64,000 nt of DNA from Cyanidioschyzon merolae (lineage: Eukaryota): assembly GCA_000091205.1 (NCBI GenBank), contig AP006501.2. One strand, given 5' to 3'. The notes beneath the pieces were generated by a model. The model saw nothing but the letters and a program-made list of their open reading frames with translations. It did no database searches and had not been told where the DNA came from. Numbering within the stretch: position 1 is the stretch's first letter; the number at the start of each line of letters is the position of its first letter. Of this stretch, positions 4,820-46,563 are shown in pieces. The translations under genes and the position numbers were made by a program.

Positions 4820-6475
4820 TTGGCGGCTTTCCTAGAACACTCAAACAGCAGTCTTAACTTGATCAGCAGCAGACAGCCAGAAGAAGGGCATCTATGGTCC
4901 ATGTTTCAGGTGCTTACCGGTACGAGTGTTGCAGGAAACAACGGCTGGCTGACAACCGACGTCGTTTCTGGTGTACCGCAGAGATCGCCGGCCTGGGGGG
5001 CGTACTCAGGTTCATGGCCTGCGCAGAAGCGCTCCTCTTTTGAAGCGCAAAGTCTCCATCTTCCGAGCTCCAATGAATACCGTCTAGAACCTTCGTGGTT
5101 CGGCGGCGGAGCCCGAAAACGAGCAGCCCAGCGGGGACGCTGCCCTAACTGCTACTCTCCGCAGCAAACTACACGCCAAAGTCCGCGTTGTGCAGTCTCC
5201 GACGAGACCTACATGGACCGCTGCATTCAACTGGCTTTAATGGCAAGGCCGTCCCCGAACCCCCCGGTCGGATGTGTGGTCGTCGACCCTGACACAGGTC
5301 GCATTGTCGGAGAGGGTTTCCATCCGCGTGCGGGCTACCCCCACGCGGAGCAATACGCCTTGCAGGCGACCTTTACAACGCTGAGGAACGCGTCATCGCA
5401 CCAAAACCAGCACCTGGCAGCGACTGTCTCTGAGCCCGTGGCCGCACTACCTGGCTCTGCACGAGGTATGCATGTTTACGTGACGCTCGAGCCGTGCAAC
5501 CATTACGGGAGAACGCCTCCCTGCACCGAGTCCCTGATCCAGGCACAGGTGTCGCGGGTTGTCATCGGTACACGAGATCCAGACCCCAGAACTGCTGGTT
5601 CCGGTGCGGAGCGTCTTCGACGAGCGGGTATCGAGGTGCAGTTTGGACCTCGCGCAGCCGAGTGCTTGAAACTCTACGAGGGCTTTCAGCATCGCATCCA
5701 CCATCAGACTCCACTTGGTATCCTCAAATACGCCATGAGTCTGGATGGTAAAATAGCGACGGAAACAGGGGATGCTCGATGGGTGAGTTCGGCGACCAGT
5801 CGACGGTATGTGCATGAGCTACGCGCTCGCTGTGATGCTGTTGTCGTCGGCGCTGGTACGGTACGTCGAGATGATCCCGCTCTGACGGTTCGTTTGGAGG
5901 AATCCATCGATGTACCTGAACTGGGATATGGCCAGCCCTTGCGTGTCGTCATGTGCACCAGCGCTGCACGATTGTGGCGAGATCGACCTGACGCAAAGCT
6001 CTGGGATACATCAGTGGCCCCGACGGTGCTTGCAGTGTCGTCTGCAGGTGAAGTTTCTTCCTCGAAGGAGCTCGATGCTGCTGAAAGAGAGGCGATTCTT
6101 GCGTTACGCTCTAGAGGTGTCCAGATTGCGTATCTGGATGCATTACTTCCCTTGCCGCCGACGCGGGCGCTAATGCAGTGGCTCTACGACTACGGCTGCA
6201 CCACGGTACTCTGGGAGTGTGGTGGTACCCTTGCGACGTCAGCGGTGCGCGAATCAGCTGTCCACAAAATACTTGTATTCGTAGCCCCAAAGCTCGTCGG
6301 GGGCAGGTCGAGCCCGACGCCGATTGCCGCTGATTTGGGTGTTCGCAACATGGAGGAAGCGCTCGCGCTACGACTTGGTCGGATGGAGGTCATCGGATCT
6401 GGGCAGGATGTGCTCATCGAGGCGTACCTCGACAGCAACAAGCTATCGCCCGATGCGGCTAGCGGCACTACTTGA
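4820..6475 (+). CDS. ribD: Bifunctional riboflavin biosynthesis protein RibD-like (pyrimidine deaminase plus reductase) with an N-terminal extension of about 120 aa
   Basis: The cytidine/dCMP deaminase zinc motifs HAEQYALQ and LEPCNHYGRTPPC are followed by a RibD C-terminal reductase-like region (ILKYAMSLDGKIA...GDARWVSS...VVVGAGTVRRDDP). The true start is uncertain, because the first roughly 120 aa are low-complexity and could be a targeting peptide. Confidence 0.85.
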   Translation: MAAFLEHSNSSLNLISSRQPEEGHLWSMFQVLTGTSVAGNNGWLTTDVVSGVPQRSPAWGAYSGSWPAQKRSSFEAQSLHLPSSNEYRLEPSWFGGGARKRAAQRGRCPNCYSPQQTTRQSPRCAVSDETYMDRCIQLALMARPSPNPPVGCVVVDPDTGRIVGEGFHPRAGYPHAEQYALQATFTTLRNASSHQNQHLAATVSEPVAALPGSARGMHVYVTLEPCNHYGRTPPCTESLIQAQVSRVVIGTRDPDPRTAGSGAERLRRAGIEVQFGPRAAECLKLYEGFQHRIHHQTPLGILKYAMSLDGKIATETGDARWVSSATSRRYVHELRARCDAVVVGAGTVRRDDPALTVRLEESIDVPELGYGQPLRVVMCTSAARLWRDRPDAKLWDTSVAPTVLAVSSAGEVSSSKELDAAEREAILALRSRGVQIAYLDALLPLPPTRALMQWLYDYGCTTVLWECGGTLATSAVRESAVHKILVFVAPKLVGGRSSPTPIAADLGVRNMEEALALRLGRMEVIGSGQDVLIEAYLDSNKLSPDAASGTT

Positions 6476-6840
6476 GTTGCGCATTCAAATGTTGTCGTGG
6501 TGTACATTTTGCGAAGCACGCCGCGTTGCAAACGGATAGCGGAATGACTTTTACGAGAAGTGCATTTTCGGATGGTGTTCACTCTACGCTGCAAACGGGC
6601 AACAAGCCATGTCGTGGAGCTGAGCAGCGTTTGCGGGTGGTTTCTACGCTCCGTCGTGCGCGGATAACGAAAGCATCGCTTAGGGCTGGTTTGCGTTCAT
6701 GAGCGGTTCCTCGAAGCACCGCAGAGCAGCGCGCTCCCTCTGCTAAAGCGTATCTGACCCGGCGAACAATGGTTCCACAGTGTTTTGGATGTGTGTGCAT
6801 TCTCTGTCCGCACCAGGAAAGGTGGTGCAACCTTGGAAGC

Positions 6841-7209
6841 TCAGCGACCAGGCGTCATGGGTCGTCTCGACGACGTCAGCGGCGAGGAGGAAGCCTTGGG
6901 CGCTTGCTTCAACCCCAGACGCGGTCTTCGTAAGCCCAGGAATATCAACGACCAACCTGTTGCTGAAAACAAAGCTGCCTTATCATATTTCTCCCTAAAG
7001 CTTTTCTTCTGAGTTTTGTGATGTGCGTATCGCATCGCGAGGTAGCCTGCGGGAAATCCCCCAGCAGCGCCCAGTGCTATAAGGTCGCGCTCCGGAATAC
7101 GCCACTGGTGTTGGAGAGCTCTTCTTTTATCCTCAATAATGCACCCGGCAGATATACCGTTCACGCCAAGTAGGTACCATGGAATAAACCTACGGATAGC
7201 TTGCGCCAT
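6841..7209 (-). CDS. DUF1294-domain small membrane protein (bacterial-type domain)
   Basis: The segment IEDKRRALQHQWRIPERDLIALGAAGGFPAGYLAMRYAHHKTQKKSFREKY matches the DUF1294 consensus as recalled (DK..A..RIPE..L...GG.G...M..F.HKT.K..F). The start is taken at the internal Met MAQAIRRF (complement of 7207-7209); the ORF extends to 7308. Confidence 0.45.
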   Translation of the reverse strand: MAQAIRRFIPWYLLGVNGISAGCIIEDKRRALQHQWRIPERDLIALGAAGGFPAGYLAMRYAHHKTQKKSFREKYDKAALFSATGWSLIFLGLRRPRLGLKQAPKASSSPLTSSRRPMTPGR

Positions 7210-7386
7210 AGACACACGTTTCGTCGTAGCTTTGCTTTTAAAGCGCCCTGCCCGACGCTTCTCTGTTGTGCGACCTTTAACGTTAACCTGTGCCCCGACT
7301 GCGGACACGTTAGAGTAAAAGCTTCAACGCGTTTATACTCGTACTTATAAAAGCACGTCCGTATCCAAACACGTACTTATGCGAGC

Positions 7387-9156
7387 ATGTGTGAAAGCAC
7401 TCGCGTACAGGGTACCTTCCGGCTGGGCGTCTTGCAGTTTTCAGTGGCCACATTGCCGCGCGTCTGCACCGTCGCGCCGCTTCAGCCTACTTTTCTGCGC
7501 TCTCTGTTACTGTTGCTTGACTTGTCGGACGTGCACCGTATACATCCCGCTAGGACGCTGGGGAGAGAGATCCTTATGAGCAGCGAACAGAACCAGCCTT
7601 CATTTGAGTCAGATGGTCTAAAAATTTCGTCAGTAAGGCAACCAGTAGGGGCGTACTTGGCTGCCACGACAGCAGGTACAAGTGCTGCGAGTAGTGGGCG
7701 GCGGCTTGCGTCGCATGGCACCCGCGATGCGGATCCCGGACGCGGGAGCGCTGAAGACGACCGAGTAATGAGCGACTCGGAGTTGCTGTTGCGCAGAAAC
7801 GTTGGTCGACCTGACACCCTAACAGCAGTAGGAACACGCCTCCTGCCGACACGCAGTCGCGAGACGCTACTCGAGAAACTTCCCAAAGTGCGTTCTGTTG
7901 TCATATCCGGTGTTGCACTACTGCAACTGGTGAAAGAATGGCAACGGGCAGGTAAAGGAAGCGCTTCCAAACGCACTGGTGTCCGATCAATGGAAGGCGC
8001 TGCGTCTGAAGCCTATTGCACGGGCCAGCTCGTCGGCTACCTAGAAGTGGAGCGACGCAGTGACCCCACGAGCGACGACGCCAAAACAGCTGACGCTCTC
8101 GTCTGGGGTGACGTGATGCACGTCACAGCAGCCTTTCCCGCTCCCCGTCTGAGCGTCATTGCCGGTGGTCGCTCGACTTCGGGGAGTGCACCGACGTCGT
8201 TGCCCGCTGCGGTGATAGCCAACCAGATGCAGCAGAGGGGCACTTATCTGTGGGAGCGTTGTCGTCTTCTAAGAGAAGCGTCCCGCGAGAATCTGATTGT
8301 GGGTTGGTTTTGCGTTGGCGATACGAGGCAGCTATCGTCTTTTGTGAACGCAGAATGGACGGAGACGCAGTTTCAACACCAGTTCTGGTTGAAAAATGCG
8401 GTCTGTGTTGTATTTGATCCACTACGGAGACACAGTAGCGGGACGCTCGGGATTCGCGTGGTCCGCCTTTCCGATGCGTTCATGCGAGAGTACAGCAGAC
8501 TCATGGATTATCGAGTCGGAGGCTCGGGAAGCTCAAACAAGGGGTCAGCAGCGCTTCAAGCTTACGGTAGAGGTGGCGGTCGCGTCGCAGCCGGCTCAAC
8601 GTTTGTCTCGGAAGTGCTGCGCGATCTGGGGCTCTGCTCCCAGACAATGATCGAGGACGTTCCTTTCACAGTACACGCGTCAGCGCTCTCGGAACAGTAT
8701 CTGGCATGGAGCGCTCTTCAGCATCCACAAGCACGTGAGAACGCAAAGTTTACAGAACACGCTGCTGCCTGTGACTCTGATGTTCAGAGGCTCTCACTGC
8801 GTCGCGATGGGGTGCTCGTGGAGGAAACCGCTGGCGGTTTGATCCAAGATCTCGATGAGGTCACTAGAGAGCAGTCCCGATACCATCACTTTCTTCGGAA
8901 CTATATCCGAATACAGAATCAACAGCATGAATGGCTACGGAGGCGCCGGGCTGAAAACGAACATCGGCGTCAACAGGGACAGGAGCCTCTGCCCGAGGAA
9001 CCGCTTCCCGCGCATCTTAGTTCATATAGTGAGCCGAGTCGTCTTGAGCCTATGATGACCTTTCGTGATCTTTCGGAAACGCTGCGCGATCTTGAACTCG
9101 TCATTGGAGGCCGTTGTGAGAAACAAGTTACGCTCGAATCCTTCAAGACGGTATAG
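7387..9156 (+). CDS. Hypothetical protein with an MPN/JAB-like fold (no JAMM His motif) followed by a coiled coil
   Basis: This is a 589-aa ORF whose alternative start is the Met at 7576 (MSSEQNQ). The region LIVGWFCVGDTRQLSSFVNAEWTETQFQ...NAVCVVFDP...GTLGIRVVRL resembles an MPN core (VGWY...D..Q...VV.DP...G.L), and the C-terminal basic coiled coil reads HEWLRRRRAENEHRRQQ. The domain call is tentative. Confidence 0.35.
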   Translation: MCESTRVQGTFRLGVLQFSVATLPRVCTVAPLQPTFLRSLLLLLDLSDVHRIHPARTLGREILMSSEQNQPSFESDGLKISSVRQPVGAYLAATTAGTSAASSGRRLASHGTRDADPGRGSAEDDRVMSDSELLLRRNVGRPDTLTAVGTRLLPTRSRETLLEKLPKVRSVVISGVALLQLVKEWQRAGKGSASKRTGVRSMEGAASEAYCTGQLVGYLEVERRSDPTSDDAKTADALVWGDVMHVTAAFPAPRLSVIAGGRSTSGSAPTSLPAAVIANQMQQRGTYLWERCRLLREASRENLIVGWFCVGDTRQLSSFVNAEWTETQFQHQFWLKNAVCVVFDPLRRHSSGTLGIRVVRLSDAFMREYSRLMDYRVGGSGSSNKGSAALQAYGRGGGRVAAGSTFVSEVLRDLGLCSQTMIEDVPFTVHASALSEQYLAWSALQHPQARENAKFTEHAAACDSDVQRLSLRRDGVLVEETAGGLIQDLDEVTREQSRYHHFLRNYIRIQNQQHEWLRRRRAENEHRRQQGQEPLPEEPLPAHLSSYSEPSRLEPMMTFRDLSETLRDLELVIGGRCEKQVTLESFKTV

Positions 9157-21034: not shown

Positions 21035-24000
21035 CTACGGGAGGCGGGTGCGACGTGCCTTAAGCATGCGCCGCGGCGCCATGGTACCAGGAGCGTGCGC
21101 ATCGCCAAGGGCTTGCGTTGGTGCGAATCCAGGCGCTCCCAGCAACGGTGTCGCTGGCGGAGGCACGCCATTCGCCGCCGGGTCACTCGGAGCCAGCGAC
21201 GGCCACGGTAAGGACGCTGGCAACGGTGCGGCAGCGCCCGATGCGGGCCACGGTGATTGCAACGACGACACCGCTGGTGCCGAGACAGTCGGCGTCTGCA
21301 TCGGTGCACTGAGCGATGAGGTCGTCCACATTGATGTACCGTTCGTGCCTTGAGATGCCGATCCAAACCAGAAAGGTTCCGAATTGGTACTTGCTGTCGG
21401 TGCAGAGAACAACCAAGCGGGTGGTTTCGGCGGCGCGTTGCTAGCAGAAGCGGCGACCGTGGTATCAGTTGCGCCAGCCGCTGGTGGACCAAAGTGAAAC
21501 GTGCGCGCAGGAGCCGGTATCGCGAATGCTCCCTGTGAAATAGATGCCTTCGGTGCAGGGGCCGCGGTTGCGGGCACCTGTTGCGATGCCCCACTTGTGT
21601 CCTGCGATTGCAGGGGCGTCTTCTGGGGTGATTCCCCAAGCGCGGCACCAGCTGTGTCAACGGTTTGTATGGACTGCGTTTCTGTGGAATTCGGCTTCCG
21701 GGATGCGGTTCCGTCGCTGACGGGCGCTGCCGATGTCTCAGCCGCGGATTTGGTTTCGTACGCCGCCTTTTGCGGCATCGCCATCTCAGAGGCTGATTCC
21801 TGCTGCTCTTGCCCAGTACTGCCAGGCGGAGCGTGCATCCGTGGTACGTCATCGGGCGACGCTGACGCCAGCGTATTCGGCTTCGGGTCTGCTGGTGCGC
21901 CGGAGCACTGCGCGATCTCATCGTGTTCGTGCGGCAGTTCTGTCTGCACAAATCCCGCGAGCGATGTCTTTGCGATTTCCGACGACGACGGCGCAACGTC
22001 CAATGACCCTGATGCTGTTGGAGCAGGCGCTGCCGCATTCGGTGGTGCTATGTGTACGGAGGAGTCTGTAGATTCCTGTCGCGACGCTGATTCGCTCGAC
22101 ACCGGCACCGTCGAAGGCTGCACAGTCGTATCAACAGGCACGTACCCGGTTCTTTGAGTAGAGCCGGCTGTGGACAGTGATGGCGGTCGCCAAGGTTCCG
22201 GAATACGCGGCAACGCGATCTCGAGAGGGCGCATGCGCGGTGGCAGCGTCGGCAATGTCGGTGCGTCGGGACTGGAACCCTTCGACAACGTTGTCTCTGC
22301 AGCGTCGGCATGGAGCTGGGCTTCTGGTGACGCTTGTTGCGCGTGCTCTCCATGCTCTGGTAGCGACACCGTTCGTTGCACTTGGAGTTCATCATCGCCG
22401 AGTTTTGACGGGACTATTCGCCGCATGGCTTCGAGTTGCATGTCCCTGGCACCACCAGCCGCAGCACCAAATACGGTCGCAGATTTTGACCTGGCCTGCT
22501 GCTCAGCATCTCCTGTAGGTGGCAATGAAACAGCACCAGCATCCCGCGTAGTTGGCGCTGTGGTGTCATGCGTACCAGTGGCGGCGAGGTCCACTGCAGC
22601 AGCACTTGCATGCTGATCGGCCTTCAGCGGTGGTGTTCGCAAATGCATGTCTTGTTCGGCAGTGAGAGACGACGAGATGTTCGCGTCATCAGCGGAAACA
22701 TCCATCGAAAGCGTACGGCGCTTATTCCGAGCCGCCACTGTTTGCGCAGCACGGTCCAATGCGACGTCCAGCTCAGTACTATGGTCTATGGTGAAACCGC
22801 GATTGCTAGTCACGTCGGATGCAGCGGTTGCTGCTGCGGGTGTTCGCTTCCCAGGTGTTATGCAAGTGTCGCGCTCCCGCTCCGGCTGATCGCGAATCCT
22901 CTTCAGCGATTCGATGAGTTGATATAGGCGGCTCGTTGGAGCTCCAGCGCCATCACCATCTTTGCGGATGTCTGCTCGGGCTCGCTGACCATCGCGCCCA
23001 TTTTGATGCCTATCGGAACGCGTACCCGTCACGATAAGGTTAGCGTCTGATCGGCGCCGTTTCGCCGCACTCATCCGCAGTGCAGGCGATCCATCGAACG
23101 TCCAGACGGCATCTAAACTGCGGTTCTGCACGCTGTGCGCCTGGGATGGCACTGATCCGCTGCCCAGGGATCCAGACGGTAGCGCGCCAGCGCTCTGCTC
23201 GAACACGCCAATGGGGCTGGTTCGCTTCGCGGATGTCGCATTGCTTGTTCGCGTTCGCCCATGCGGGACGTCTCGCAGCGGAAGTGTCGTGAGCGGTACC
23301 GCAGGCAACTTCACGTGACGGACGTCTGCTCTATTTCGCAACCAGCCATCACTTCTGTCGTCGATAGCGCTCATTCCTGACCGCTCTAATTCGCGTCCAA
23401 GAAGGCTCGTCGATAACCTAGGATCCAGGTGCTCCTGCTGGTAGCTCTCTGGATGCGCGCAAAGCGTACTGTAGTGCTGCCTCTCGAGTGAAGCGTGCAA
23501 CGACGACGATCGAGCTCTGTAGGTGTCCAGCATCGACGACGACAGGCGTTCGGTGCTATGCTGTGTGAAACGTGCCTCTAGTCGCGACGCACCAGCGACG
23601 AAATCCGACTCGGTCGGTGTCCATGGCGACAGGCGGCGGAAATCGGAACCGCTTGGACGTACCGAGTACATGGTGCTGGTCGGTGTCGCGGCAGGGGCAT
23701 CCATAATACGCCGATGCGGCACGATCCCCAATGCAGACGGCCGTATCTTTGGTGCTGGCGGCAGGTCGGCCAAATTTCGGATGAGCGACTGCTCCTGCGC
23801 AGGAGATCCCCCTTTTGATGCCTGAATCGCAACGCCCATCGATCGCGTCTCTGTTCGCTGCCTGAACGTCCGAATGACATCGTAGCTGGTCACGAGCGAT
23901 GCCTGCCGGGTGCTACGCTCTGGTGCTCGCGAATCGTTCGCGGGTTGCGCTCCGTAAACCCGTGTCGTAGGGGATTCGGTGTGGGTCGCGGTGGTGGCTG

Positions 24001-25825
24001 CGGCGCGTTCATGTCGTGAGGTGCTATCCAGGTTCGTCAAGAGCTGGGTCGGGGCTAGACTCTCGTGCGGCTGCGATACAGCCGTCCGCTGCTCTGGCAA
24101 ACGCGCTGTCGGCACTGGCCCTGAAGAACAGGCGATCGCGGGAGCCAGCGAATCCGCAACATCGCGTGCCAGTGCGGTCGAGGTTGCGCGAGATGACGCA
24201 TCCGGAACCTGTTGCGTCGTGCCCGAGAGCACGGAATCCCGGGAATGCTGCGCTTCACTGGCGTACTGGTCACTTTCGGAGCGAGTGGGATCTCCAGTGT
24301 CCATCAGGAGGCTATCTTGCCTCTGGACGACTCCATCCTTCAGAGGCAACGCTTTCGAGTCGTTCGCATATTCGAGCTGCGTCTCTTGCTTGTGCGGCGT
24401 GTGTTTTGAAGCATCCTCGCACTCACGGGCCGAGTCTGCCGAAGCGGATACAGTCGCTGTTTCGCCGACCATGCGCGTACGCTGCACCGTCCCATTAGAC
24501 GCATCTCCATCTGATGATGCACTCGAATAGCGTCCACGATGTTCTCGTGAATCTGTTCTCGAGGACTGCAAGCCATTGGGAGATCCATGTTCAAGACTAG
24601 TCGACGCGGCAGGGGATCTGCTGCTCCCGCGCCAGAGACGCCACCATCTCGACAATGACATCTGGAGTCGTCCGAGCCACCCGTGCGCACCTCGAATCCT
24701 GAGCATAGCTCCAAGCGTCAAGTCTTCCCGTGAATTTGCGCAAAGCTCCTGTGCCTCCATCGAGCTCAGGGCTCGCGCGATGGCCCGGGTTTCGACGGCC
24801 ACTGCCCTGCTGGATTGCTTCCGTACGCCACCGTCGTGCTGTTTCGGTTTCGTCGCTCGCTGTACAGCTCTTGTGGTGCCTTTTTTACCAGGCACACTGT
24901 CCCGATTCATAACATGAGCTGTTCCTGTTCGCCTCTGTACGGGATGCGAGCGTCTGCCTGTCTGGCGTCCATGGACAACACCCGTCCCGGTCGTGGTCTG
25001 GTCATGCGCCTCGCGCACTGCATACAAGTGAGAATGTTCGTCCGATGAGGAGACGCTCCGCTGAGGCGATGCCTCCTCCTGATGATGACGCTCCCGCGGC
25101 AACGACTCCATTCCGGACGGCAAGTGCACGGACGCTGTGGCGCTGGGCACGCTCGAGCGCCCGCGTGGCGCTCGCTGCTGTGAGCCCCTGCCCGGAGACT
25201 CCGACTCGAGCGCACCTTGATTCGATGAACTCTGGACATATGTCGCTATATGATCGCTAGACTGGCGTTGTGCACTTGTGGAAACCGTTGATCGAGGCGT
25301 CTGCTCCGTCGCTCGGCAAGCAAGGGCAGCAGCTCTGCGCACCTGAGACCGCGTGAGTGGGCCATTCTCGTTCGAAAAGCTCGCTGTTGCACGCTTCTGA
25401 CCAGGAGCAAGTTCGTAGCCGGCCTCAACCGTCACACTTAGCCTTCGCACCGGGGTTTCGTGCTCGGGTCGCACGGGCGTGTCGGACGGAGTACCTGCGA
25501 GTCCTCCGTGTGGCTCCTGCACAGCTACTGGCGAACTCTCCGCTGACTGGTCTCTCCTTGAAAGGGTAGTGTCGCTACGCTCCCCAGCTGACTTTCTTCG
25601 AGCGGCTGATGTCTTGCGACTAGACTTCGTCTTCAAAGGCACGTCCGTCTCTACGGAGTGAGACGGCGTCCGCGTACTCGTCGACCTACTGGAACGCCGT
25701 CGGGGGGTCCGTCGTCGCGGGCTTGTCCTCCAACGGGCTTCGATGCGGGATCCTTCCGGCAAGTCATAGTTGCCGTGTCGCGTGCTTACCATACCAGCTG
25801 TCAGTGGACGCCTTGAGCGCACCAA
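21035..25825 (-). CDS. Very large (1596 aa) Ser/Thr/Ala/Pro-rich low-complexity, predicted-disordered protein of unknown function
   Basis: A 4.8-kb open frame is far longer than expected by chance at this GC content. The C-terminal part carries FG-like motifs (FHFGP, FWFGS) and there is no recognisable domain. A long Arg-rich shadow ORF (20704-22038) overlaps it in another frame. Confidence 0.5.
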   Translation of the reverse strand: MVRSRRPLTAGMVSTRHGNYDLPEGSRIEARWRTSPRRRTPRRRSSRSTSTRTPSHSVETDVPLKTKSSRKTSAARRKSAGERSDTTLSRRDQSAESSPVAVQEPHGGLAGTPSDTPVRPEHETPVRRLSVTVEAGYELAPGQKRATASFSNENGPLTRSQVRRAAALACRATEQTPRSTVSTSAQRQSSDHIATYVQSSSNQGALESESPGRGSQQRAPRGRSSVPSATASVHLPSGMESLPRERHHQEEASPQRSVSSSDEHSHLYAVREAHDQTTTGTGVVHGRQTGRRSHPVQRRTGTAHVMNRDSVPGKKGTTRAVQRATKPKQHDGGVRKQSSRAVAVETRAIARALSSMEAQELCANSREDLTLGAMLRIRGAHGWLGRLQMSLSRWWRLWRGSSRSPAASTSLEHGSPNGLQSSRTDSREHRGRYSSASSDGDASNGTVQRTRMVGETATVSASADSARECEDASKHTPHKQETQLEYANDSKALPLKDGVVQRQDSLLMDTGDPTRSESDQYASEAQHSRDSVLSGTTQQVPDASSRATSTALARDVADSLAPAIACSSGPVPTARLPEQRTAVSQPHESLAPTQLLTNLDSTSRHERAAATTATHTESPTTRVYGAQPANDSRAPERSTRQASLVTSYDVIRTFRQRTETRSMGVAIQASKGGSPAQEQSLIRNLADLPPAPKIRPSALGIVPHRRIMDAPAATPTSTMYSVRPSGSDFRRLSPWTPTESDFVAGASRLEARFTQHSTERLSSSMLDTYRARSSSLHASLERQHYSTLCAHPESYQQEHLDPRLSTSLLGRELERSGMSAIDDRSDGWLRNRADVRHVKLPAVPLTTLPLRDVPHGRTRTSNATSAKRTSPIGVFEQSAGALPSGSLGSGSVPSQAHSVQNRSLDAVWTFDGSPALRMSAAKRRRSDANLIVTGTRSDRHQNGRDGQRARADIRKDGDGAGAPTSRLYQLIESLKRIRDQPERERDTCITPGKRTPAAATAASDVTSNRGFTIDHSTELDVALDRAAQTVAARNKRRTLSMDVSADDANISSSLTAEQDMHLRTPPLKADQHASAAAVDLAATGTHDTTAPTTRDAGAVSLPPTGDAEQQARSKSATVFGAAAGGARDMQLEAMRRIVPSKLGDDELQVQRTVSLPEHGEHAQQASPEAQLHADAAETTLSKGSSPDAPTLPTLPPRMRPLEIALPRIPEPWRPPSLSTAGSTQRTGYVPVDTTVQPSTVPVSSESASRQESTDSSVHIAPPNAAAPAPTASGSLDVAPSSSEIAKTSLAGFVQTELPHEHDEIAQCSGAPADPKPNTLASASPDDVPRMHAPPGSTGQEQQESASEMAMPQKAAYETKSAAETSAAPVSDGTASRKPNSTETQSIQTVDTAGAALGESPQKTPLQSQDTSGASQQVPATAAPAPKASISQGAFAIPAPARTFHFGPPAAGATDTTVAASASNAPPKPPAWLFSAPTASTNSEPFWFGSASQGTNGTSMWTTSSLSAPMQTPTVSAPAVSSLQSPWPASGAAAPLPASLPWPSLAPSDPAANGVPPPATPLLGAPGFAPTQALGDAHAPGTMAPRRMLKARRTRLP

Positions 25826-28456: not shown

Positions 28457-29680
28457 ATGACGGGGGCACTGCGGTATCGAGCACTGGCTCGAGTCATAGA
28501 ACGCTGTCTGGGCTCGCGTGCGCTCGGCGAGAGCGGCTCAGCAGCTGCAGTCAGCAACTATGTCTGGCAGCGCGAAGCATCACGGGGTTTCGTGTTAGGG
28601 ACGCGCCTGCTGCCGTGGTGCCCGCTAGGGTCGCGTTTACTGCACAGTCCATCACAGACAGCGTCAGTTATCAGGATGAATACCGGTTCGTTTGCACCTA
28701 AACCCGATTTGGGTGAACAACAACCAAACACTCTGACGGGGCAGCCACGTATCATGGTCGTTGGGGTTGGCGGCGCCGGTGGAAACGCAGTCAACAACAT
28801 GATCGCGTCTTCACTGCCCGGGGTCGAGTTCCTCGTCGCGAATACAGACGCACAAGCGCTGAAAATGAGCTTATGTCCTAACCGTATCCAGTTAGGTGCA
28901 AGCCTAACTGAGGGGCTCGGCGCGGGCGCTCGACCCGATATTGGACGAGCCGCAGCAGAGGAAGCGTATGAGACGCTCAAGCGAGAGTTCCGAGGCGTAC
29001 ACTTACTGTTCGTCACTGCCGGCATGGGTGGGGGCACCGGCACTGGCGCTGCGCCCATCATTGCACGAGCAGCCGCAGAGCTCGGTTGCCTGACGGTTGC
29101 CGTCGTCACGAAACCGTTCCATTTTGAGGGCATGATCCGAATGAAAACAGCCGAGCAAGGCATCGTCGAGCTCACAGAACATGTCGATACGATGCTGGTC
29201 ATCCCGAACCAGAATCTCTTCAAAGTCGCCTCGCCGCGCACTAGCTTCCTGGATGCATTCCGCCTCGCCGATCACGTGCTCTACTCTGGTGTTCGTTCGA
29301 TTACAGACCTGATGACGGTACCAGGCCTGATCAATTTGGATTTCGCTGATGTTCGCAGTGTTGTTAGGGAAATGGGACGAGCCATGATGGGATCCGGTGA
29401 GGTCGAGATGGAGGCCGGCAACGAAGAACGCGCCATTCGCGCGAGTGAAGCGGCTATCTGTAACCCGCTGCTCGACGAGACCTCCTTACGCGGCGCTCGC
29501 GGGGTGCTTGTGAACATTACCGGTGGTACGGACATGACGCTTTTTGAGATAGATGCTGCAGCGAATCGAATTCGAGAACAGGTCGATCCCGATGCGAACA
29601 TTATTTTCGGATCGGCTTTCGATGCTTCGATGCAGGGGAGGCTTCGCGTCAGTGTTCTCGCGACCGGCATTCCATCCTGA
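28457..29680 (+). CDS. ftsZ: FtsZ, alpha-proteobacterial/mitochondrial type, with N-terminal presequence
   Basis: Tubulin/FtsZ GTPase motifs are present: [51 protein letters not shown] (TGTG variant), [15 protein letters not shown] and [12 protein letters not shown]. About 90 aa of Arg/Ala/Leu-rich N-terminal extension precedes the core, and the protein ends immediately after the core domain. Confidence 0.9.
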
Positions 29681-30584: not shown

Positions 30585-32417
30585 TCAGAACCTGAACAAG
30601 GGTAGTGAACTATCCACTTCGTTCCAGTTCTTGCTCTCGAACAGATCCTGAACTGTGCGACGTTTGGGCTGGGGTTGGAAAACCTGCGCCGTCCACGTAC
30701 CGTGCAGTCCCATGGGAAGAAACGTTCGTAGGGGCACTTTGCAAACGAGCTTGAGATCCGAGGCATCAAGAATGACCAAGTATGTGCTCCGATGCAACCC
30801 GTCACTGACCACACTGAGTATGTAACCGTCATCTTCCGCTGATTCCTTATCAGGTTCGATCAAGCGGGGCGCAAAAACTGGTTCCCCAGCGAATTCGTAG
30901 ACCGATGGCGGTTGCCACGTAGCTAGCGTCTGGCCGGTGTCGGCGTCGACCTTGATGATGTTCTTGAGAGGGCCTGGCTCCGTGCCAAGTGCGCTTGCCC
31001 CCATGTACACATAGCGATACGGCTGCGTAAGGCGGCTCGGGTTCACCACCGGAAAGTCAACGTGCGTCGTATTCACCTCACGCCAGGTTGCGCGCTGCGT
31101 TCCGCTGCCGCTGCGAGTCGGTATGCGACAGCGCCAAAGGCTGCACTTGGGAACTTGGGTCCCAAAATCGACTGCCTCCACGACACGCTGCGTGCGCGAC
31201 AATCCGTTTCGATGGCGACGAGTCTCTCCCAGGAACAACCGATCCATTCGACAAGCGTCAAGAACAACAGCGTCGTCGTCGTCGTCGTCGTAGGCGTTCA
31301 CAAAATGGAACGCTGTGCAGGTCTCACTCAGAACCTCACGCACAGGTGCACCCGGGTCGTCGCGAGGTATCAGCAGCAAACGCGTCGGCATTCGATCCCC
31401 TTCCCAGGTAATACACTCTCCTGGACACTTGAGTCCGAGCACGAAAGGAAGCGGATGGAAGCGCAGTGGCGCCTGCAGCAAAATATAGTAACGCTGCGTG
31501 ATCATAAAATCGTGGAAGAAACCAAATCCATCAATGTCCACCGTTCGTTCCGAGCATAGCTTCCAATTCTCTGATGCGAATTCCAAAAACCGGATCCGTA
31601 ACCCATTCAAATGCATCCGAGAGGAGAACCCCACGAGGCGTCCCCGGCGAAGTGGATCGACGTGCGGGTGTGCGGTGAACATCGGCATGGGGCCGGTGAG
31701 CGTCCCCCCGAGCCTGAAGACGCCCTTCGTTTCGAGCGTATCAGGGCGCAGCTCATAGGGCAGGCCGCCTTCGTACAAGGCAAGCAACTGGTTCGCGTGG
31801 TAGATCACGTTTGTGTTGGCGAGATTCTTTTGCTCAAGGCGGAACGCGTTGGTCACGATTCCACCCGGCAGCGGTGTAGCAAAAGTGCCGCGGTAGAGCT
31901 GATAGCCGGCGCGACGCTCTTTTAAGTAGCCCTCTGTTCGAACAAAACGATTGCGGAACCATACTGTTCCGTCTCCGCGCAGCGTGAACGCTGCAACGGC
32001 TCCATCACCTTCCCAGGGATGAAGCATTCGTCGAGAGCCAATGGTGAACTTGGATGGACCGTTTCGATACAGGGTGCCGACGAGGTCATGAGGAAGGTCG
32101 GGTAAGTCCAGTACGTAGGAGTCCTCCTCGTTCATATCGCCGTGCGCTAGCTCCCAGGATCGACGATCGAAAGCACTCAGCGACTGTGTTTTACCTGGTG
32201 CCGAGGTTAGCTGGCCCTGTTCACGAACCGTGTTGGTCGCTCCGCTTTCCTGGGAACTCAGATGTGTCGCACCGCCGCTGCGAGCAGGCCGAAGGCTTCT
32301 TCTCTTCAGTCTGCCACATTGGAAAGTAGCGGTGGCGTTCACACTAGCGCCCTTCCAGTGCCTGAGTGCACCGTTGCCGACCACGAAGGCAGTCTTATCT
32401 CCAGGATGCAAATTCAT
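30585..32417 (-). CDS. Carotenoid cleavage oxygenase (RPE65/CCD family)
   Basis: The 610-aa ORF spans the whole family. It has a conserved His-containing ladder (HPHVDP, FFHDFMITQRYYIL, HFVNAYDD, HGTW) and includes an acidic DDDDDD insertion. Confidence 0.85.
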   Translation of the reverse strand: MNLHPGDKTAFVVGNGALRHWKGASVNATATFQCGRLKRRSLRPARSGGATHLSSQESGATNTVREQGQLTSAPGKTQSLSAFDRRSWELAHGDMNEEDSYVLDLPDLPHDLVGTLYRNGPSKFTIGSRRMLHPWEGDGAVAAFTLRGDGTVWFRNRFVRTEGYLKERRAGYQLYRGTFATPLPGGIVTNAFRLEQKNLANTNVIYHANQLLALYEGGLPYELRPDTLETKGVFRLGGTLTGPMPMFTAHPHVDPLRRGRLVGFSSRMHLNGLRIRFLEFASENWKLCSERTVDIDGFGFFHDFMITQRYYILLQAPLRFHPLPFVLGLKCPGECITWEGDRMPTRLLLIPRDDPGAPVREVLSETCTAFHFVNAYDDDDDDAVVLDACRMDRLFLGETRRHRNGLSRTQRVVEAVDFGTQVPKCSLWRCRIPTRSGSGTQRATWREVNTTHVDFPVVNPSRLTQPYRYVYMGASALGTEPGPLKNIIKVDADTGQTLATWQPPSVYEFAGEPVFAPRLIEPDKESAEDDGYILSVVSDGLHRSTYLVILDASDLKLVCKVPLRTFLPMGLHGTWTAQVFQPQPKRRTVQDLFESKNWNEVDSSLPLFRF

Positions 32418-33753: not shown

Positions 33754-35607
33754 GTGGATCTGGTAGTAGTGTCGGTACCCGCGCTGCAGGTAACGTTTCG
33801 TGTACCCAAACTGCAGACTGAGGACCTTGTTTCCAAAGCTTTTCTCATAATGTGGGTTGTACCTGGCAGTTTTAGGGCACGACGATGCGACGGTTTTGGT
33901 GTAGAATGGACCTGGTCTGTTGATCGGGCCTGTGCAACAGTTCCGTGCTCGAGCCTGAGGCGACCGCGACCACGACAGGGCGCTACGGTGCGGCGAGAGC
34001 GAAACTGGAGTCAAAAGCCGTGTGGCGTCCCGGGCAACACAGTGGTGAGAGTCTCTTGCCATATAGGGCAAAGTTCGAGTAATGACGAGGGTGGCACTGG
34101 AGAGCCTCTGGTGCACAGCAGTGGCGAACAGGCGTGGCAGCGTCGTGCGCTCTCCAGCACCGGTACAAAGGACGCGGAGCTCGACGCTAATGAGCTGGAT
34201 GACGGCCTCTGGGGTATTGTTTCTCAGCTGCCAGTCAAGCGCATTCTCATCTGGGCTGCGTTCTGCTGGCTCGTGTACCTTTGTCGCCCGTTCATGGGTG
34301 TGTTATTCGGTACGTTCGTCGTCTCGTACGTCGGGGTCTCTTTTTGCCAATGGGGCACACGTTTTCTCCAGCGGTTCGGTATCCAGGCTGCCCGCCGTGT
34401 CATTGTTGGCGTCTACTACAGCGGCATCGCTTTGTTCATCACGACGATGAGCCTGTTGACGATCCCGCGGATCATCAAAGAGGGCCAGTACTTTGTGGGC
34501 ATCATACGGAGTAGCAATCCATACGTATGGATCGCGGATACCATGCGACGAGCCCTGGGTGATGAACTCTCTGCCAAGGTGGAGGCCTTGGTGCTCTCAG
34601 AGGGTTATGCTGAGCTTGCAGACCAAGACACCGGGTCGAGTGCTGGCCAGAGCCCGTCCACAAACGGAGCCGAGACTTCCGAAAGCACAAACGAGGCTTC
34701 TCCGGGGCCGGTGCAAGTCCGCATACCGCATCGCGGCAGCGCAGCAGATGCCAAGGCGGAACGAGCCCCTGGCATCGCTGCCGGTCCGCTAGCGACCATG
34801 AATGCACCGGCAGAGTGGACAGAGGAGCGATCGAGACGACTCGGTTTGATCATCCAAAAGTCACTTTCGCGTTATGTGAATCGTTTCGCCTCCATCGTCA
34901 GCAGGATTTTGAGCAACAGCACAAAAATCATTGTGAAAGTACTGCTTTCCCTGGTGTTCTCATTCCTGATCGTCTGGGATCTGCCATCTGTGGCTGCTGG
35001 CCTGCGTTCTCTTCGCCGCTCCCGACTGCGGGCAGCGTACTTGGAACTGGCGCCGGCCATTGGTGAGTTCTGCGCCCTCCTCGGCCGTTCATTCGAAGCA
35101 CAGTCGATTATTGCGCTTGTGAACACGACGTTGACAACGATTGGCATGGGGATTCTCGGGTTACCGGGTATTGGCTTTCTCTCTCTTCTCTGCTTGATAT
35201 GCTCTTTTATTCCGCTTTTCGGGATTCTGCTCAGCACACTGCCGATGTGTGTCGTCGCGCTGACGGAATACGGGCCAATGCGTGCATTCGCCGTCGTGGT
35301 TATGGTTGCAATTGTTCACCTGATTGAGGCCTATTTCCTGAATCCACAAATCTACAGCGCTCATCTCAAGCTGCCGCCCTTGGTTGTTCTTATGGTTCTG
35401 TACATTGGCGAGCATGCAGGTGGCGTCATGGGTCTTATTCTTGCAGTGCCGCTGACGGTTTATTTGTTGCGATGGATCTATGATATTCCAGAAACGAAGG
35501 AACGTTCTGCGTACGTGAGCTCTATGCGAGCGACCAGCTCGAATGGCAGAGAAGAGCCAAGCGAAGACGTGACGATCACGCGCCAGCAGCAGCAGCAGCA
35601 GCAATAG
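33754..35607 (+). CDS. AI-2E family transporter (PF01594/UPF0118-like) with a long N-terminal extension and C-terminal polyQ tail
   Basis: The C-terminal block CSFIPLFGILLSTLPMCVVALTEYGP...HLIEAYFLNPQIYSAHLKLPPLVVLMVLYIGEHAGGVMGLILAVPLTVYLL fits the AI-2E consensus as recalled (fIP.iG...P......v...E.n.l.P...g....l.P..v..s.......G..G..lavPl). Multiple TM helices are predicted, and the protein ends QQQQQQQ, encoded by (CAG)n. Confidence 0.7.
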   Translation: MDLVVVSVPALQVTFRVPKLQTEDLVSKAFLIMWVVPGSFRARRCDGFGVEWTWSVDRACATVPCSSLRRPRPRQGATVRRERNWSQKPCGVPGNTVVRVSCHIGQSSSNDEGGTGEPLVHSSGEQAWQRRALSSTGTKDAELDANELDDGLWGIVSQLPVKRILIWAAFCWLVYLCRPFMGVLFGTFVVSYVGVSFCQWGTRFLQRFGIQAARRVIVGVYYSGIALFITTMSLLTIPRIIKEGQYFVGIIRSSNPYVWIADTMRRALGDELSAKVEALVLSEGYAELADQDTGSSAGQSPSTNGAETSESTNEASPGPVQVRIPHRGSAADAKAERAPGIAAGPLATMNAPAEWTEERSRRLGLIIQKSLSRYVNRFASIVSRILSNSTKIIVKVLLSLVFSFLIVWDLPSVAAGLRSLRRSRLRAAYLELAPAIGEFCALLGRSFEAQSIIALVNTTLTTIGMGILGLPGIGFLSLLCLICSFIPLFGILLSTLPMCVVALTEYGPMRAFAVVVMVAIVHLIEAYFLNPQIYSAHLKLPPLVVLMVLYIGEHAGGVMGLILAVPLTVYLLRWIYDIPETKERSAYVSSMRATSSNGREEPSEDVTITRQQQQQQQ

Positions 35608-42670: not shown

Positions 42671-42935
42671 GGAGCGTTCATGCGTGCAGGTCGGCAGCAG
42701 CGCGTACTGCGTCCTGCTCGGGGTATGCTGTATTCAGCGTGTGTGAAACGACTGGATGCACCGGGCTCGTGCTTCGTAGTGAACGCTGGAGCTGGACTGG
42801 ACTACCGCGGAGCGTTCATGCGTGCAGGTAGGCAGCAGCGCGTACTGCGTCCTGCTCGGGGTATGCTGTATTCAGCGTGTGTGAAACGACTGGATGCACC
42901 GGGCTCGTGTTTCGTAGTGAACGCTGGAGCTGGAC
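42671..42935. repeat. Tandem direct duplication, 2 x about 138 bp at about 97% identity
   Basis: The unit ggagcgttcatgcgtgcaggt(c/a)ggcagcagcgcgtactgcgtcctgctcggggtatgctgtattcagcgtgtgtgaaacgactggatgcaccgggctcgtg(c/t)ttcgtagtgaacgctggagctgga occurs at 42671 and again at 42809. It lies 125-390 bp upstream of the RAD52 start. Confidence 0.85.
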
Positions 42936-44013
42936 GGATCCGACGTTCCGAAATATCGACATGTACACTGCTGTGGATATTGTCGTTATTGTCGACGGAC
43001 TGGGCACGATGAGGTGAGATGATTTTTCAAGGATGCTTCCTGGATATGCCCCCTTCCAGAGAAGGCGAAGACGCCATCGCTGTTCTGCTGCCTCTAAGCA
43101 CTTCGATGCAGCTCGGAGGTATGTGAATTTTTTGCAGGGCGCCGTACGCGACCCCTGAGGGAGGAGTTGTCGCCCGGAACACGATGGTGGACGACGACGC
43201 ACCGTAAGCGTCGCTCGTGATAGCAAGATTTGGCGTCATGCTCGGAAGGTCGCATCGCCGTGGCGAAGCGATCGTGTCGAGCCCCTCGTTTCATGCTGTA
43301 CGATCGATGAGACTCAACAGAACATCTCGGATGTGCGAATGGATTTGGCAATCCCAGGAAAACGACCAGTGCGTCTCACCGGGCGCTCCTGTGTTTGACT
43401 AGACTCAGTCGCGCCCTCAAGGTACGTATGGACGAGGCTTTGATCCGAGGATGCGCTGGCAGCCGCTGAGCGCCCTGGATCCAAGGCGCTTGCTCTGCCG
43501 ATTGCGCATCATGCTCCGCAATCTTGATGCTATCGATGCCATAAAGCAGAATGCTTGGCATTTTTCAGCCAACGCAACAAATGCTCGCCGAGAAAACCTT
43601 CGAACTGGTCCGTGGGCCTGAACGCTCCCTCGTTTGCGCTACTGAAATACCTGTCTCTGAGCGTTAGCAAAAATATGGGCGCGACCTGATGACCTGAAAC
43701 GTTGAGATGCAGCGGCGTTATCGCCACCGAGCAGGACGCGCCCGTTGTCTGTATGGTGCCCTTTAAGTTCATCGATTGTGATGCCAAATCATGCGCATCA
43801 TCAACGATGTCTATGCCACCGAAAAAAATCGCACACCAGGCTGTGCTCCGAGGGCGCATCACGTCCCGAATGTGTCGAAGACAATCGCGTCGAGGAGCGC
43901 ATGCCTGGGTGTTTCGCACGCTAAGTTCGCCGAGCGCTCTGGTTTTCGAATATGGGGACTGTGGACTAGCACCTGGCACAAAGCCCGTCTTTTTCCTCGA
44001 AACAGTAGGCAGC

Positions 44014-44871
44014 ATGTCTTTGAAGCGTCCGTTGCCCGACCCGACGGACTCGGAGCTGGTTTCGGTAAATAGCGCGGACGTGAGAGAGCCCGAAGCGAGT
44101 CACACCATCACGAAACTGTTTACTGCGCTCGGAGCTGCTTTGGACGAGCGTCTGGAGCGACGTGAGCGTTTCGTGCGCGCCTCGCGAGACCTCACCATGG
44201 CAGCGAAGAAGGCCATCTTTGAACTTCAGAGACTGAAAAGCTCGTTACGCCGCCTGCGAGACACACAAACACAAGAAGCCTGGGCAAAGACGGAGCAAAC
44301 GTTTGATCGGTTGCAAGGCCTGCTACGAGGTGGAATTCTCAAGGAACTCGAGGCGACGCCCGCGTTCAGCGATACCTACTGGCAGTACCACCAGGTGTTT
44401 TCGCCTGGCGTCCAGGAGTACGTGGAGGCTCTTGCGTTTCGCCACTGGTTCAAAGACGCACGGATTCTACAGTTTCAAGCTACCTGCGAAAAATTGGCAC
44501 CGTTTCCGCTCGAAGTATCCGACTATTTACTTGGACTCTGTGATGCGTCCGGCGAAGTGATGCGACTAGCAGTCCAGAGCAGTGCTCTTGGAGAGCAGGG
44601 CGTTGCCTTTGAGGCGAGCAGTTTTCTCGATACACTCCGACGGGAGTGCACGAGAATCAGCGCTCGCACCCGCCGGGCGTGGCCGCCTTCCATGCAGCAG
44701 GATCTGGACCGCAAACTCGTTACCATGGGTGAGAGTTTGCAAAAAGTGCAGGATGTTTGTTATCGGTTATGTTTGAGACGCGCCGAGCGTGCCGTGTTAG
44801 GTCTTGATGACCGTGATGAAGCTGACGACGGCGCCGATGCTGGTATTCAGGCGGAAGAGATCATCGGATGA
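44014..44871 (+). CDS. Translin-family protein (translin-associated factor X/TRAX-like)
   Basis: The C-terminal signature SDYLLGLCDASGEVMRLAV corresponds to the translin DYLLG.ADLTGELMR motif, and the N-terminal region is helical. The start is taken at MSLKRPL (ATG at 44014); the ORF opens at 43702. Confidence 0.7.
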   Translation: MSLKRPLPDPTDSELVSVNSADVREPEASHTITKLFTALGAALDERLERRERFVRASRDLTMAAKKAIFELQRLKSSLRRLRDTQTQEAWAKTEQTFDRLQGLLRGGILKELEATPAFSDTYWQYHQVFSPGVQEYVEALAFRHWFKDARILQFQATCEKLAPFPLEVSDYLLGLCDASGEVMRLAVQSSALGEQGVAFEASSFLDTLRRECTRISARTRRAWPPSMQQDLDRKLVTMGESLQKVQDVCYRLCLRRAERAVLGLDDRDEADDGADAGIQAEEIIG

Positions 44872-45642
44872 GCTCCGGCAAGAGACTCTTTTCTCGTGGC
44901 GAGGCATTAGCGCTGATTTACGCAGAGCCGTTTGCACGCATTTGACCGAGAGCGCTTCGTTTCTGTATCGTTTACAGGAAAGCGCTGATCTTCAGCGTGA
45001 GGAAATCCGCGCACCCTCTGACGGAACTGGCCCATCTAGAAGGGATCGAATCCAACAATGGAGGCCTAGTGACAAGAGCAGTAGCAGCAGCAGCAGCAGC
45101 AGCCGGCAAGGCCGCGATTTGCGGTTCGGAATGATGCTCAGGATCCGGGCTCCTCCGATGAAACCTGGGATCAGCGTGTCGTTTGCGTTGCAAAAACTGG
45201 TTCTTCCTGGTGCAATCGAGCATACGTCTGCTCGATCGAGTCAGAAGCGATGCGCCTTTTGCGCGTATATAGAAGATCCCCCCCCTGACACATCAACCAA
45301 TATTCTCGAAGCACCTATCCATTCGACATCGCAACGCAGGACCACTGAGTGGCAGTTTTTGGACACGCGCTTCCGAACAGACCAAAGGACACTGGTTAGG
45401 CAACGTCGAAGCCGCGCACGACGCACGCTGTACCCGAGACATGTCGGATAAGGCAACGTCTCCTGCGCTGCGGAGACATTTTTGCCCGACGCAGCGCTAT
45501 ATCAACGGCTGTATGGACGCCCCCGGTGCCAGCATGGTACCTGTTGCTGAGGCTCCAAGGACGCGCCCATTGCTAGCATGACTAAGGCACTTGGCGTCTA
45601 GAACATACGTAACTCCGAGGGATCCGTGCCTGATTAAAGGCA

Positions 45643-46563
45643 CTAGTGCTTGTCGCTTGTCGTCTCGTATGGTGTGCTCGGACGAGATGCGACTTGGTGA
45701 AGTGCAACGACCAGTGAGGGTGCCTGTCGCCGGTTGAGCCAGCGATGCGCAACCGCCGTCCACTGAGACGCGTCCAGCGCTTGCGCCCAGTCCATCACGG
45801 CGGCTCCTTCGGCGGCCCCGCCGTCGTGTCCGGTGTAACAACTAACAGAAATGAGACCCTCACGGGGAGCAATCAACCCTTCAAGGAGTTTCAAGCTTTT
45901 TATGGTCGTGTCGGCGCGCGTGCGGATGCTTCTATCCGAGTCTAGGCCGGGCAGGTAGCCTAAATTGTATGCAGCGACCTTGAACCATGTTGGCCGAGCT
46001 TTGACGTCAGCAAGCCAACTATCCAGCATGTCTCGCTGAAACTGCTCGTGGGGAAACTGCCTGAGTTCACAAATGAAGCCGTTTTCAGTCCAAAGACGGC
46101 AACGGAGGCGTCCTTGCGTGTATTCGGAGTGGATGTGCAGCTCTGTTGATCGGAATCTGCTTTGAAACATGTCAACCAGGCGATTCCTCGTTCGCATCAC
46201 AGCTTTATCTTGGATATCCAGGGCGATCAGGGTGCCCGTAACCGGCGCACCGATATATTCGGCGAGCGCCAGTGTATCATGACCGTTACCACAGGTGGCA
46301 TCTAGGACCATATCACCGGGTTCGAGGACGCTGCGCCAGTACGTGTGCGCAAGTTGTGTGTTCTTCTCCAGGTGGTGCGCCGAGCAGAGCGGTGGTGGCT
46401 CTGTGCACCGCGGCCTGCGCTGGACCACCCGCGGAACGCGTGAACACCCCGGGCGGCTATAGCGACGTGTTGAGAGCCAGTTACAGAAAGCGAAACAACA
46501 CGTTCTCTCCCAGTAAACGAGAGAGGGCTTTCTTTCGCCGGTCAGCGCTCTCGAAAAGTTCAT
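45643..46563 (-). CDS. YtqB-like class I SAM-dependent methyltransferase (bacterial 'putative rRNA methylase' family) with an N-terminal extension
   Basis: The segment VLDATCGNGHDTLALAEYIG...LIALDIQDKAV matches YtqB (VIDATMGNGHDTQFLA...VYGFDIQ). The roughly 60-aa N-terminal extension could be an organelle-targeting peptide. Confidence 0.7.
   Translation of the reverse strand: MNFSRALTGERKPSLVYWERTCCFAFCNWLSTRRYSRPGCSRVPRVVQRRPRCTEPPPLCSAHHLEKNTQLAHTYWRSVLEPGDMVLDATCGNGHDTLALAEYIGAPVTGTLIALDIQDKAVMRTRNRLVDMFQSRFRSTELHIHSEYTQGRLRCRLWTENGFICELRQFPHEQFQRDMLDSWLADVKARPTWFKVAAYNLGYLPGLDSDRSIRTRADTTIKSLKLLEGLIAPREGLISVSCYTGHDGGAAEGAAVMDWAQALDASQWTAVAHRWLNRRQAPSLVVALHQVASRPSTPYETTSDKH

Follow-up and report, generated by a model that had tools for sequence, protein, structure and literature searches.

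Bacterial-type genes of probably mixed ancestry among the nuclear genes of Cyanidioschyzon merolae, a red alga

Results

Four bacterial-type genes embedded in red algal nuclear DNA

The window analysed here is a 64,000-nucleotide stretch of the Cyanidioschyzon merolae genome (GenBank assembly GCA_000091205.1, contig AP006501.2; positions are counted from its first letter), and it carries four genes whose protein families are predominantly bacterial. These encode a bifunctional riboflavin-pathway deaminase/reductase, RibD (4901..6475, + strand; 524 aa, BAM82932.1), a small membrane protein of the DUF1294 family (6841..7209, − strand; 122 aa, BAM82933.1, annotated 'hypothetical protein, conserved'), a transporter of the AI-2E (UPF0118/PerM) family (33850..35607, + strand; 585 aa, BAM82942.1), and an MnmM/YtqB-type, S-adenosylmethionine (SAM)-dependent tRNA (nm5s2U34) methyltransferase (45643..46563, − strand; 306 aa, BAM82946.1, annotated 'similar to rRNA methylase'). 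We consider it highly likely that each of the four goes back to an ancient bacterial gene that is now fully domesticated, with host codon usage, eukaryotic neighbours and, in three of the four, a presequence. Judged by their relatives, the origins differ from gene to gene, RibD being of cyanobacterial and MnmM and AI-2E of non-cyanobacterial type.

All four domain assignments of the initial annotation, which had been made from the DNA letters alone, hold in Pfam at scores above the gathering thresholds and far beyond chance: RibD_C at 5e-38 with a deaminase domain at 4.4e-18, DUF1294 at 1.9e-18, AI-2E at 1.8e-36 and PF06962 at 9e-27. The last two values dispose of the concern, raised at the time, that the AI-2E and YtqB calls might rest on insignificant matches. 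The ATG-started translations of the flagged open reading frames (ORFs), together with that of an adjacent FtsZ gene, match annotated proteins of C. merolae 10D exactly (1,282,939-bp record). Two of the starts first proposed are revised to the ATG codons at 4901 and 33850; the mechanically delimited ORFs had been opened at their first TTG (4820) and first GTG (33754).

Bacterial contamination or misassembly would have only the predominantly bacterial distribution of the four families in its favour, and we give it a vanishingly small probability. The window belongs to the finished nuclear genome of a red alga, and we exclude contamination, because the proteins match the finished 1.28-Mb chromosome record exactly and the genes on both sides are unambiguously eukaryotic, as the initial annotation had argued from the interleaving. 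These neighbouring ORFs encode eIF5A, eIF3h, SPT16, a mitochondrial carrier, TMEM208/SND2, Rad52, translin, a Myb protein, a P4-ATPase and a protein kinase, in a window of long intron-free ORFs on both strands and of even GC content (0.50-0.62). Moreover, these genes are also carried by many independent C. merolae contigs from metagenomes, up to 69 kb long, and have orthologues in sister species.

The comparison of codon usage and of GC content at third codon positions (GC3) that the initial annotation had proposed was also run. GC3 is 0.53-0.62 in the four genes against 0.55-0.69 in 13 neighbours, and the synonymous-codon log-likelihood under the neighbours' usage is within the values of the neighbours for all but DUF1294, which (-1.334 over its 122 codons) comes just under the neighbour minimum of -1.298. 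Their composition gives no sign that the four genes are recent arrivals.

RibD is a bacterial-style enzyme with a cyanobacterial-type relative

RibD consists of a deaminase domain (~5198-5572, +; Pfam 4.4e-18) and a RibD_C reductase domain (~5717-6403, +; PF01872, 5e-38, profile positions 3-194 of 197). Both zinc-binding deaminase motifs are present, HAE (residue 148) and PCNHYGRTPPC (residue 198), as is the SLDGK motif of the reductase part at residue 280. The protein passes the NCBIfam eubact_ribD equivalog TIGR00326 with 315.9 bits against a cut-off of 156.35 (model 1-338 of 343), and solved bacterial RibDs in the PDB match it with E-values down to 3.5e-55. These features point to a single, apparently complete bifunctional deaminase/reductase of bacterial style.

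Homologues were collected by a HMMER scan of 1.84 billion representatives. After the protein's own cluster and a 71% relative, the best matches were the proteins P0280 (53%) and P0281 (50%), followed by those of Galdieria phlegrea and Porphyridium purpureum (48% each). When the top 148 sequences were placed in a neighbour-joining tree (351 columns, 100 bootstraps), P0280, P0281 and the Galdieria, Porphyridium and C. merolae RibDs, plus further N-terminally extended proteins, fell in one clade with a bootstrap of 90, beyond which the tree is without resolution. P0280 has no N-terminal extension. Its gene is on a compact contig, L097, 24 bp downstream of one for a DUF3769 protein (543 bits), and the contig also carries genes for PAP_fibrillin, DUF3134, DAHP synthase and MraY; in a published survey DUF3769 was the LptD of 56 of 58 cyanobacteria (PMC4365693). 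Because the clade with the red algae includes a protein from this contig of cyanobacterial type, RibD is best read as an endosymbiotic gene transfer from the cyanobacterial plastid ancestor. A cyanobacterial nearest relative, the mark of such a transfer, was found for RibD only and for neither AI-2E nor MnmM.

Having come from that ancestor, the enzyme would make riboflavin, most likely in the plastid as do PyrD and PyrR. Higher plants possess these two proteins as distinct RibD homologues, PyrR with an extra COG3236 domain, and DEK33, the maize PyrR homologue, localises to chloroplasts (PMC6793443).

Some further observations were made on ribD and its surroundings. On the two bacterial contigs with the closest relatives, ribD stands directly 3' of a gene for a protein of ~600 aa, which is DUF3769/LptD in one (L097, 3-2956) and without a Pfam hit in the other (L098, 4152-7122), and this common arrangement suggests conserved local synteny in the lineage. 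One match outside the bootstrap-90 clade sits in a classical ribD-ribE-ribBA-ribH operon. The P. purpureum RibD (P0285, 686 aa) has its RibD domains from residue ~311, and the preceding ~310 aa, which are without a Pfam match and far beyond transit-peptide length, may reflect a fusion or a gene-model error. In C. merolae, RibD and DUF1294 are convergent (tail to tail) and separated by a gap of 365 bp (6476-6840). A co-transfer of the two was considered and rejected, as the cyanobacterial-type contig L097 has no DUF1294 gene beside ribD.

The 'rRNA methylase' is of the MnmM type

What had been called a 'putative rRNA methylase' does belong to the PF06962/YtqB family (9e-27, 94.1 bits against a gathering score of 22.7); it is the name that is outdated. 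YtqB has been renamed MnmM for its methylation of 5-aminomethyl-2-thiouridine (nm5s2U34) to 5-methylaminomethyl-2-thiouridine (mnm5s2U34) in tRNA (Cho et al. 2023, PMC9976899), and the best solved relatives of the C. merolae protein are the YtqB/MnmM enzymes of Bacillus subtilis and Staphylococcus aureus (8h0s at 2.1e-25; 8h1a). The residues of the B. subtilis enzyme (bsMnmM) that mutagenesis found essential for catalysis and for the recognition of U33/U34 include D34, N101, Y104, Y141 and H144, which are identical in the C. merolae protein, and K110, which is replaced by R; K11, also essential in the mutants, is H, as it is in 107 of 120 homologues including those of mosses. On its sequence, the 'rRNA methylase' is an MnmM-type tRNA nm5s2U34 methyltransferase.

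The protein also has a Cyanidiales-specific insertion of ~34 aa within residues 135-194 (45980-46160, −), absent from bacterial and moss homologues, which breaks the match to the NCBIfam MnmM equivalog (NF053511) into two stretches. This insertion is common to the closest Cyanidiales relatives (P0158) and is shorter in Cyanidium.

According to its description, MnmM is distributed over 'Firmicutes, Chlamydia, Mollicutes and plants', while cyanobacteria use MnmC, and the Arabidopsis and rice orthologues, cloned and expressed without their predicted chloroplast signal peptides, are active (PMC9976899). The organisms named among our 120 best matches were Cyanidiococcus, Cyanidium, five Chlamydiae, two mosses and one Nitrosomonas; two close bacterial matches had bacterial gene contexts without a phylum signal. 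Together, the match names and the published distribution are suggestive of a Chlamydiae-like, non-cyanobacterial ancestry. With orthologues in Cyanidium, Cyanidiococcus and mosses, and characterised enzymes in Arabidopsis and rice, the transfer probably predates the red/green split, on a tree that is itself without resolution. In organellar tRNAs, of which plastid tRNA-Glu/Gln/Lys are the most likely, the enzyme would complete the conversion of nm5s2U to mnm5s2U at wobble position 34; the plastid is suggested as the compartment by the plant data.

The AI-2E transporter belongs to an algal clade next to Planctomycetota

The Pfam match of the AI-2E protein (PF01594, 1.8e-36, 126.4 bits against a gathering score of 34.3) covers profile positions 102-324 of 327, and the alignment with algal and Planctomycetota homologues spans the whole membrane core, including three N-terminal helices outside the Pfam match. 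This core occupies residues ~120-545, with hydropathy segments at 127-159, 184-202, 360-378, 420-461 and 479-541 and a long low-complexity loop at ~255-320. In the AlphaFold model the helical core is confident, with predicted local distance difference test (pLDDT) values of 85-94. A phmmer search of the PDB gave no significant match to a solved structure.

Orthologues (36-77% identity) were found in six named red algae (Cyanidiococcus, Gracilariopsis, Pyropia and three species of Galdieria), in two green algae (Sanguina and Haematococcus) and in an MMETSP transcriptome, and bacterial matches start near 30% identity. The named matches include no land plant and no non-photosynthetic eukaryote. 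We scanned one genome per bacterial or archaeal species of GTDB in a motif-seeded search, which returned at least 565 relatives; the best 80 of these come from Planctomycetota, Verrucomicrobiota, Thermoanaerobaculia, Riflebacteria, Elusimicrobiota and others, and include no cyanobacterium. In a neighbour-joining tree of 138 sequences (330 columns), the 57 eukaryotic proteins form a clade with a bootstrap of 78, and their sister, with a bootstrap of 70, is a protein encoded on a compact bacterial contig, L001 (Planctomycetota metagenome-assembled genome, JARGOJ010000432.1). This bacterial protein (L001, 1414-2814, +) comes unusually near the algal clade (2e-82, with 38% in its best segment) and has the same long lysine/glutamate-rich central loop; its gene adjoins one for an ABC1/UbiB-type kinase.

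These results bear on the possibility that all four genes are cyanobacterial endosymbiotic transfers, the non-cyanobacterial neighbours of MnmM and AI-2E being artefacts of sampling or gene loss. The grouping of RibD with a cyanobacterial-type sequence is what one would then expect, the eukaryotes with named matches to the three extended proteins are all photosynthetic, and the deep nodes of the AI-2E and MnmM trees are weakly supported. For AI-2E, however, the lack of a cyanobacterium among the best 80 of at least 565 bacterial matches and the Planctomycetota sister group argue the other way, as does, for MnmM, a family reported to be absent from cyanobacteria together with the matches in Chlamydiae. 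A common cyanobacterial source for the whole set therefore seems to us decidedly improbable, and we prefer separate bacterial sources.

The AI-2E protein would be a secondary transporter that crosses an organelle membrane several times, the membrane being probably the plastid envelope or the thylakoid. Characterised family members export autoinducer-2 (AI-2) or exchange Na+(Li+)/H+; none of them falls in the algal clade, and the literature that we searched, including that on chloroplast transporters, has nothing on algal or plastid members. The 'polyQ tail' singled out in the initial annotation does exist as seven C-terminal glutamines, encoded by a (CAG)6CAA microsatellite (35584..35604, +; read from the sequence), and it is trivial: Cyanidiococcus has SQPQQAQS at this place, and the tail is not conserved in the other algae either.

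DUF1294 and the timing of the transfers

DUF1294 matches PF06961 at 1.9e-18 (66.9 bits against a gathering score of 25) over 53 of 55 profile positions, and from its length and layout, which match those of metagenomic homologues of 82-122 aa, it reads as a small three-helix membrane protein of bacterial type. A homologue search limited by its word index returned only three proteins, the relatives being one in Cyanidiococcus (66% identity) and one other; it found no orthologue outside Cyanidioschyzon and Cyanidiococcus, which is weak evidence of absence given that limit. The nearest metagenomic relatives are small bacterial-type proteins (36-51% identity), including one with a fused cold-shock domain. 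Within eukaryotes the family is sporadic, being a candidate for horizontal gene transfer (HGT) in Dictyostelium and present in few copies in cnidarians.

It is through DUF1294 that one might see in these genes recent acquisitions specific to the extremophilic Cyanidiales, taken from hot-spring bacteria as adaptations. Besides its restricted occurrence and its bacterial relatives, DUF1294 has a purely bacterial architecture with no presequence, its family is the Dictyostelium HGT candidate just mentioned, and Cyanidiales are known to carry genes of this kind, reported at about 1% of their genes (PMC6629376). For RibD, AI-2E and MnmM the idea is refuted by orthologues in mesophilic red algae, green algae and/or land plants. 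Moreover, the composition of all four genes resembles that of their neighbours, and the main text of a survey of HGT in Cyanidiales mentions none of the four families by name. As an account of the set, recent adaptive transfer is thus unlikely, if somewhat less so than a wholly cyanobacterial origin.

The early date that we favour instead for RibD, AI-2E and MnmM follows from their vertically inherited eukaryotic orthologues, which place the transfers in early algal evolution. For RibD these are found in Galdieria and Porphyridium, with PyrD/PyrR as the plant homologues. Such orthologues had been named at the outset as a finding that would speak against horizontal or organellar acquisition; they do exist for three of the four genes, and they leave the bacterial ancestry of these three in place.

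N-terminal extensions suggest organelle targeting of three proteins

The initial annotation had given each of the four proteins a eukaryote-style N-terminal extension. Relative to bacterial homologues we find one in RibD (~95 aa; residues 1-95, 4901-5185, +), in AI-2E (~119 aa; residues 1-119, 33850-34206, +) and in MnmM (~62 aa; residues 1-62, 46378-46563, −), and none in DUF1294, whose 122 aa hold the domain from residue ~19 onwards, just as in the bacterial-type homologues of 82-122 aa. All three extensions are rich in S/T and R/K. Acidic residues (D+E) are scarce in those of RibD (4%) and MnmM (5%) and not in that of AI-2E (12%), whose residues 1-117 have pLDDT values below 50 in the AlphaFold model, i.e. 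are disordered. The RibD, MnmM and AI-2E proteins probably go to an organelle.

Other features of the window

A fifth bacterial-type nuclear gene, missing from the earlier list, lies in the same interval: FtsZ1-1, annotated as 'mitochondrial division protein' (28457..29680, +; BAM82940.1, exact match; Pfam Tubulin/FtsZ 2.3e-47 and FtsZ_C 2.8e-33), with an N-terminal extension of ~95 aa. A gene for an RPE65/carotenoid cleavage oxygenase, of a family common to bacteria and eukaryotes, is found at 30585-32417 (−; 9.6e-115). An ORF of 1596 aa without a Pfam match (21035-25825, −) lies within the GC-richest part of the window (0.60-0.62), which has a strongly negative AT skew, and the many overlapping ORFs on both strands around it suggest low-complexity or repetitive coding sequence. 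Between 26001 and 28000 there is a local GC dip to 0.50 with only short ORFs, which are without Pfam matches. No tRNA genes were found anywhere in the window.

Discussion

Taken together, the domain, orthologue, tree and composition data shown here suggest that these four genes are old bacterial genes that have long since become part of the algal nucleus. The initial proposal, that they are organelle-derived or horizontally acquired and directed to an organelle, stands for RibD, AI-2E and MnmM, as to both bacterial ancestry and a probable organelle destination, leaving the origin of DUF1294 aside. For these three genes the transfers are ancient and routine acquisitions of the plastid era, with nothing in them that is peculiar to the locus.

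Several points weigh against this reading and should be kept beside it. All trees are neighbour-joining trees on corrected p-distances rather than maximum-likelihood trees, and taxa were called from named matches. The cyanobacterial type of contig L097, to which the origin of RibD is tied, we infer from its gene content. For MnmM, bootstraps beyond the Cyanidiales clade are 0-35, such that no supported node joins it to the Chlamydiae, and its score against NF053511 (134.4 bits) is 0.6 bits under the cut-off of 135. Among solved structures, the AI-2E model finds YdiK (7ot9) second in a Foldseek search of the PDB, with E=2.0 and TM scores of 0.14-0.28, which is not significant; moreover, divergent cyanobacterial AI-2E homologues could have been missed by a motif-seeded scan, and the L001 gene could have been acquired from an alga, not the reverse. 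DUF1294, with neither a presequence nor orthologues outside the two genera, may be a separate, later transfer. Lastly, plastid rather than mitochondrion as the destination of the extended proteins is something that we infer.

Nuclear genes of bacterial ancestry that serve organelles are a textbook feature of plastid-bearing eukaryotes, so that the finding as such has little discovery value. The genome is finished and annotated, and the RibD and MnmM families are biochemically understood in plants, the C. merolae enzymes being known by sequence. What is mildly new is the update of an annotation, from 'similar to rRNA methylase' to the tRNA nm5s2U34 methyltransferase MnmM, and an uncharacterised algal AI-2E clade with a Planctomycetota sister. 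The mixed origins within one 42-kb stretch (a cyanobacterial RibD, a Chlamydiae-like MnmM and a Planctomycetota-like AI-2E) illustrate the mosaic ancestry of organelle proteomes, and the algal AI-2E transporter, which is conserved and uncharacterised, is put forward for study in C. merolae, a genetically tractable alga. Going further, one may tentatively speculate, with more doubt than confidence, that the algal AI-2E protein is a previously unlisted plastid membrane transporter, obtained in early algal evolution from a Planctomycetota-like bacterium of the Planctomycetes-Verrucomicrobia-Chlamydiae (PVC) group, and that it would add, with the Chlamydiae-like MnmM, to the PVC footprint left when primary plastids were established.

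We did not find MnmM or AI-2E in the published lists of chlamydial or HGT genes examined. Some entries of Moustafa et al. were looked at as possible counterparts. The 'methylase-related' entry was rejected as MnmM, since it is the isoamylase tree (CMS197C); the 'S-adenosyl-methyltransferase' entries are probably not MnmM, given their mraW/msrW-type annotation; and for a 'cytidine/deoxycytidylate deaminase' entry no link to RibD was established.

Comparison with known systems

MnmM and AI-2E fit the pattern described for Chlamydiae/PVC-like genes of Archaeplastida (Huang and Gogarten 2007, 2008; Moustafa et al. 2008; Becker et al. 2008), namely genes that are non-cyanobacterial, are present in red and green lineages and encode products with presequences. 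They differ from the published Chlamydiae-like genes in that AI-2E points to Planctomycetota and not to Chlamydiae, and in that the donor of MnmM is weakly supported.

The algal AI-2E protein has the same layout as TqsA, YdiK and the Halobacillus UPF0118 antiporter, with three helices at the N-terminus, then a large hydrophilic loop, and a helical bundle at the C-terminal end, and it has the CSFIP and EAYxLNP motifs in common with bacterial members. It departs from Escherichia coli TqsA and YdiK and the Halobacillus UPF0118 Na+(Li+)/H+ antiporter in being a nuclear-encoded eukaryotic protein, with its disordered extension of ~119 aa and its place in an algae-only clade.

MnmM shares with the B. 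subtilis and S. aureus enzymes both the PF06962 fold and the SAM motif GNGHDT. It is longer than bacterial MnmM (306 aa versus about 190-200 aa), the surplus being the ~62-aa presequence and the internal insertion. The U35-contacting residues Q163, Q176 and N178 of bsMnmM are A, R and Q in C. merolae; K11 is replaced by H as in most non-Firmicute members, and position 110 is still basic. Like C. merolae MnmM, the plant enzymes (atMnmM of Arabidopsis and osMnmM of rice) carry an N-terminal presequence.

RibD keeps the domain order of bacterial RibD, a zinc deaminase followed by RibD_C, with an intact HAE and PCx9C zinc site, and it has an insertion between the two zinc motifs, as most matches align in two stretches. 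Compared with PyrD and PyrR, C. merolae has one apparently complete bifunctional protein where plants have two distinct homologues; in all of them the gene is nuclear and the protein carries an N-terminal presequence.

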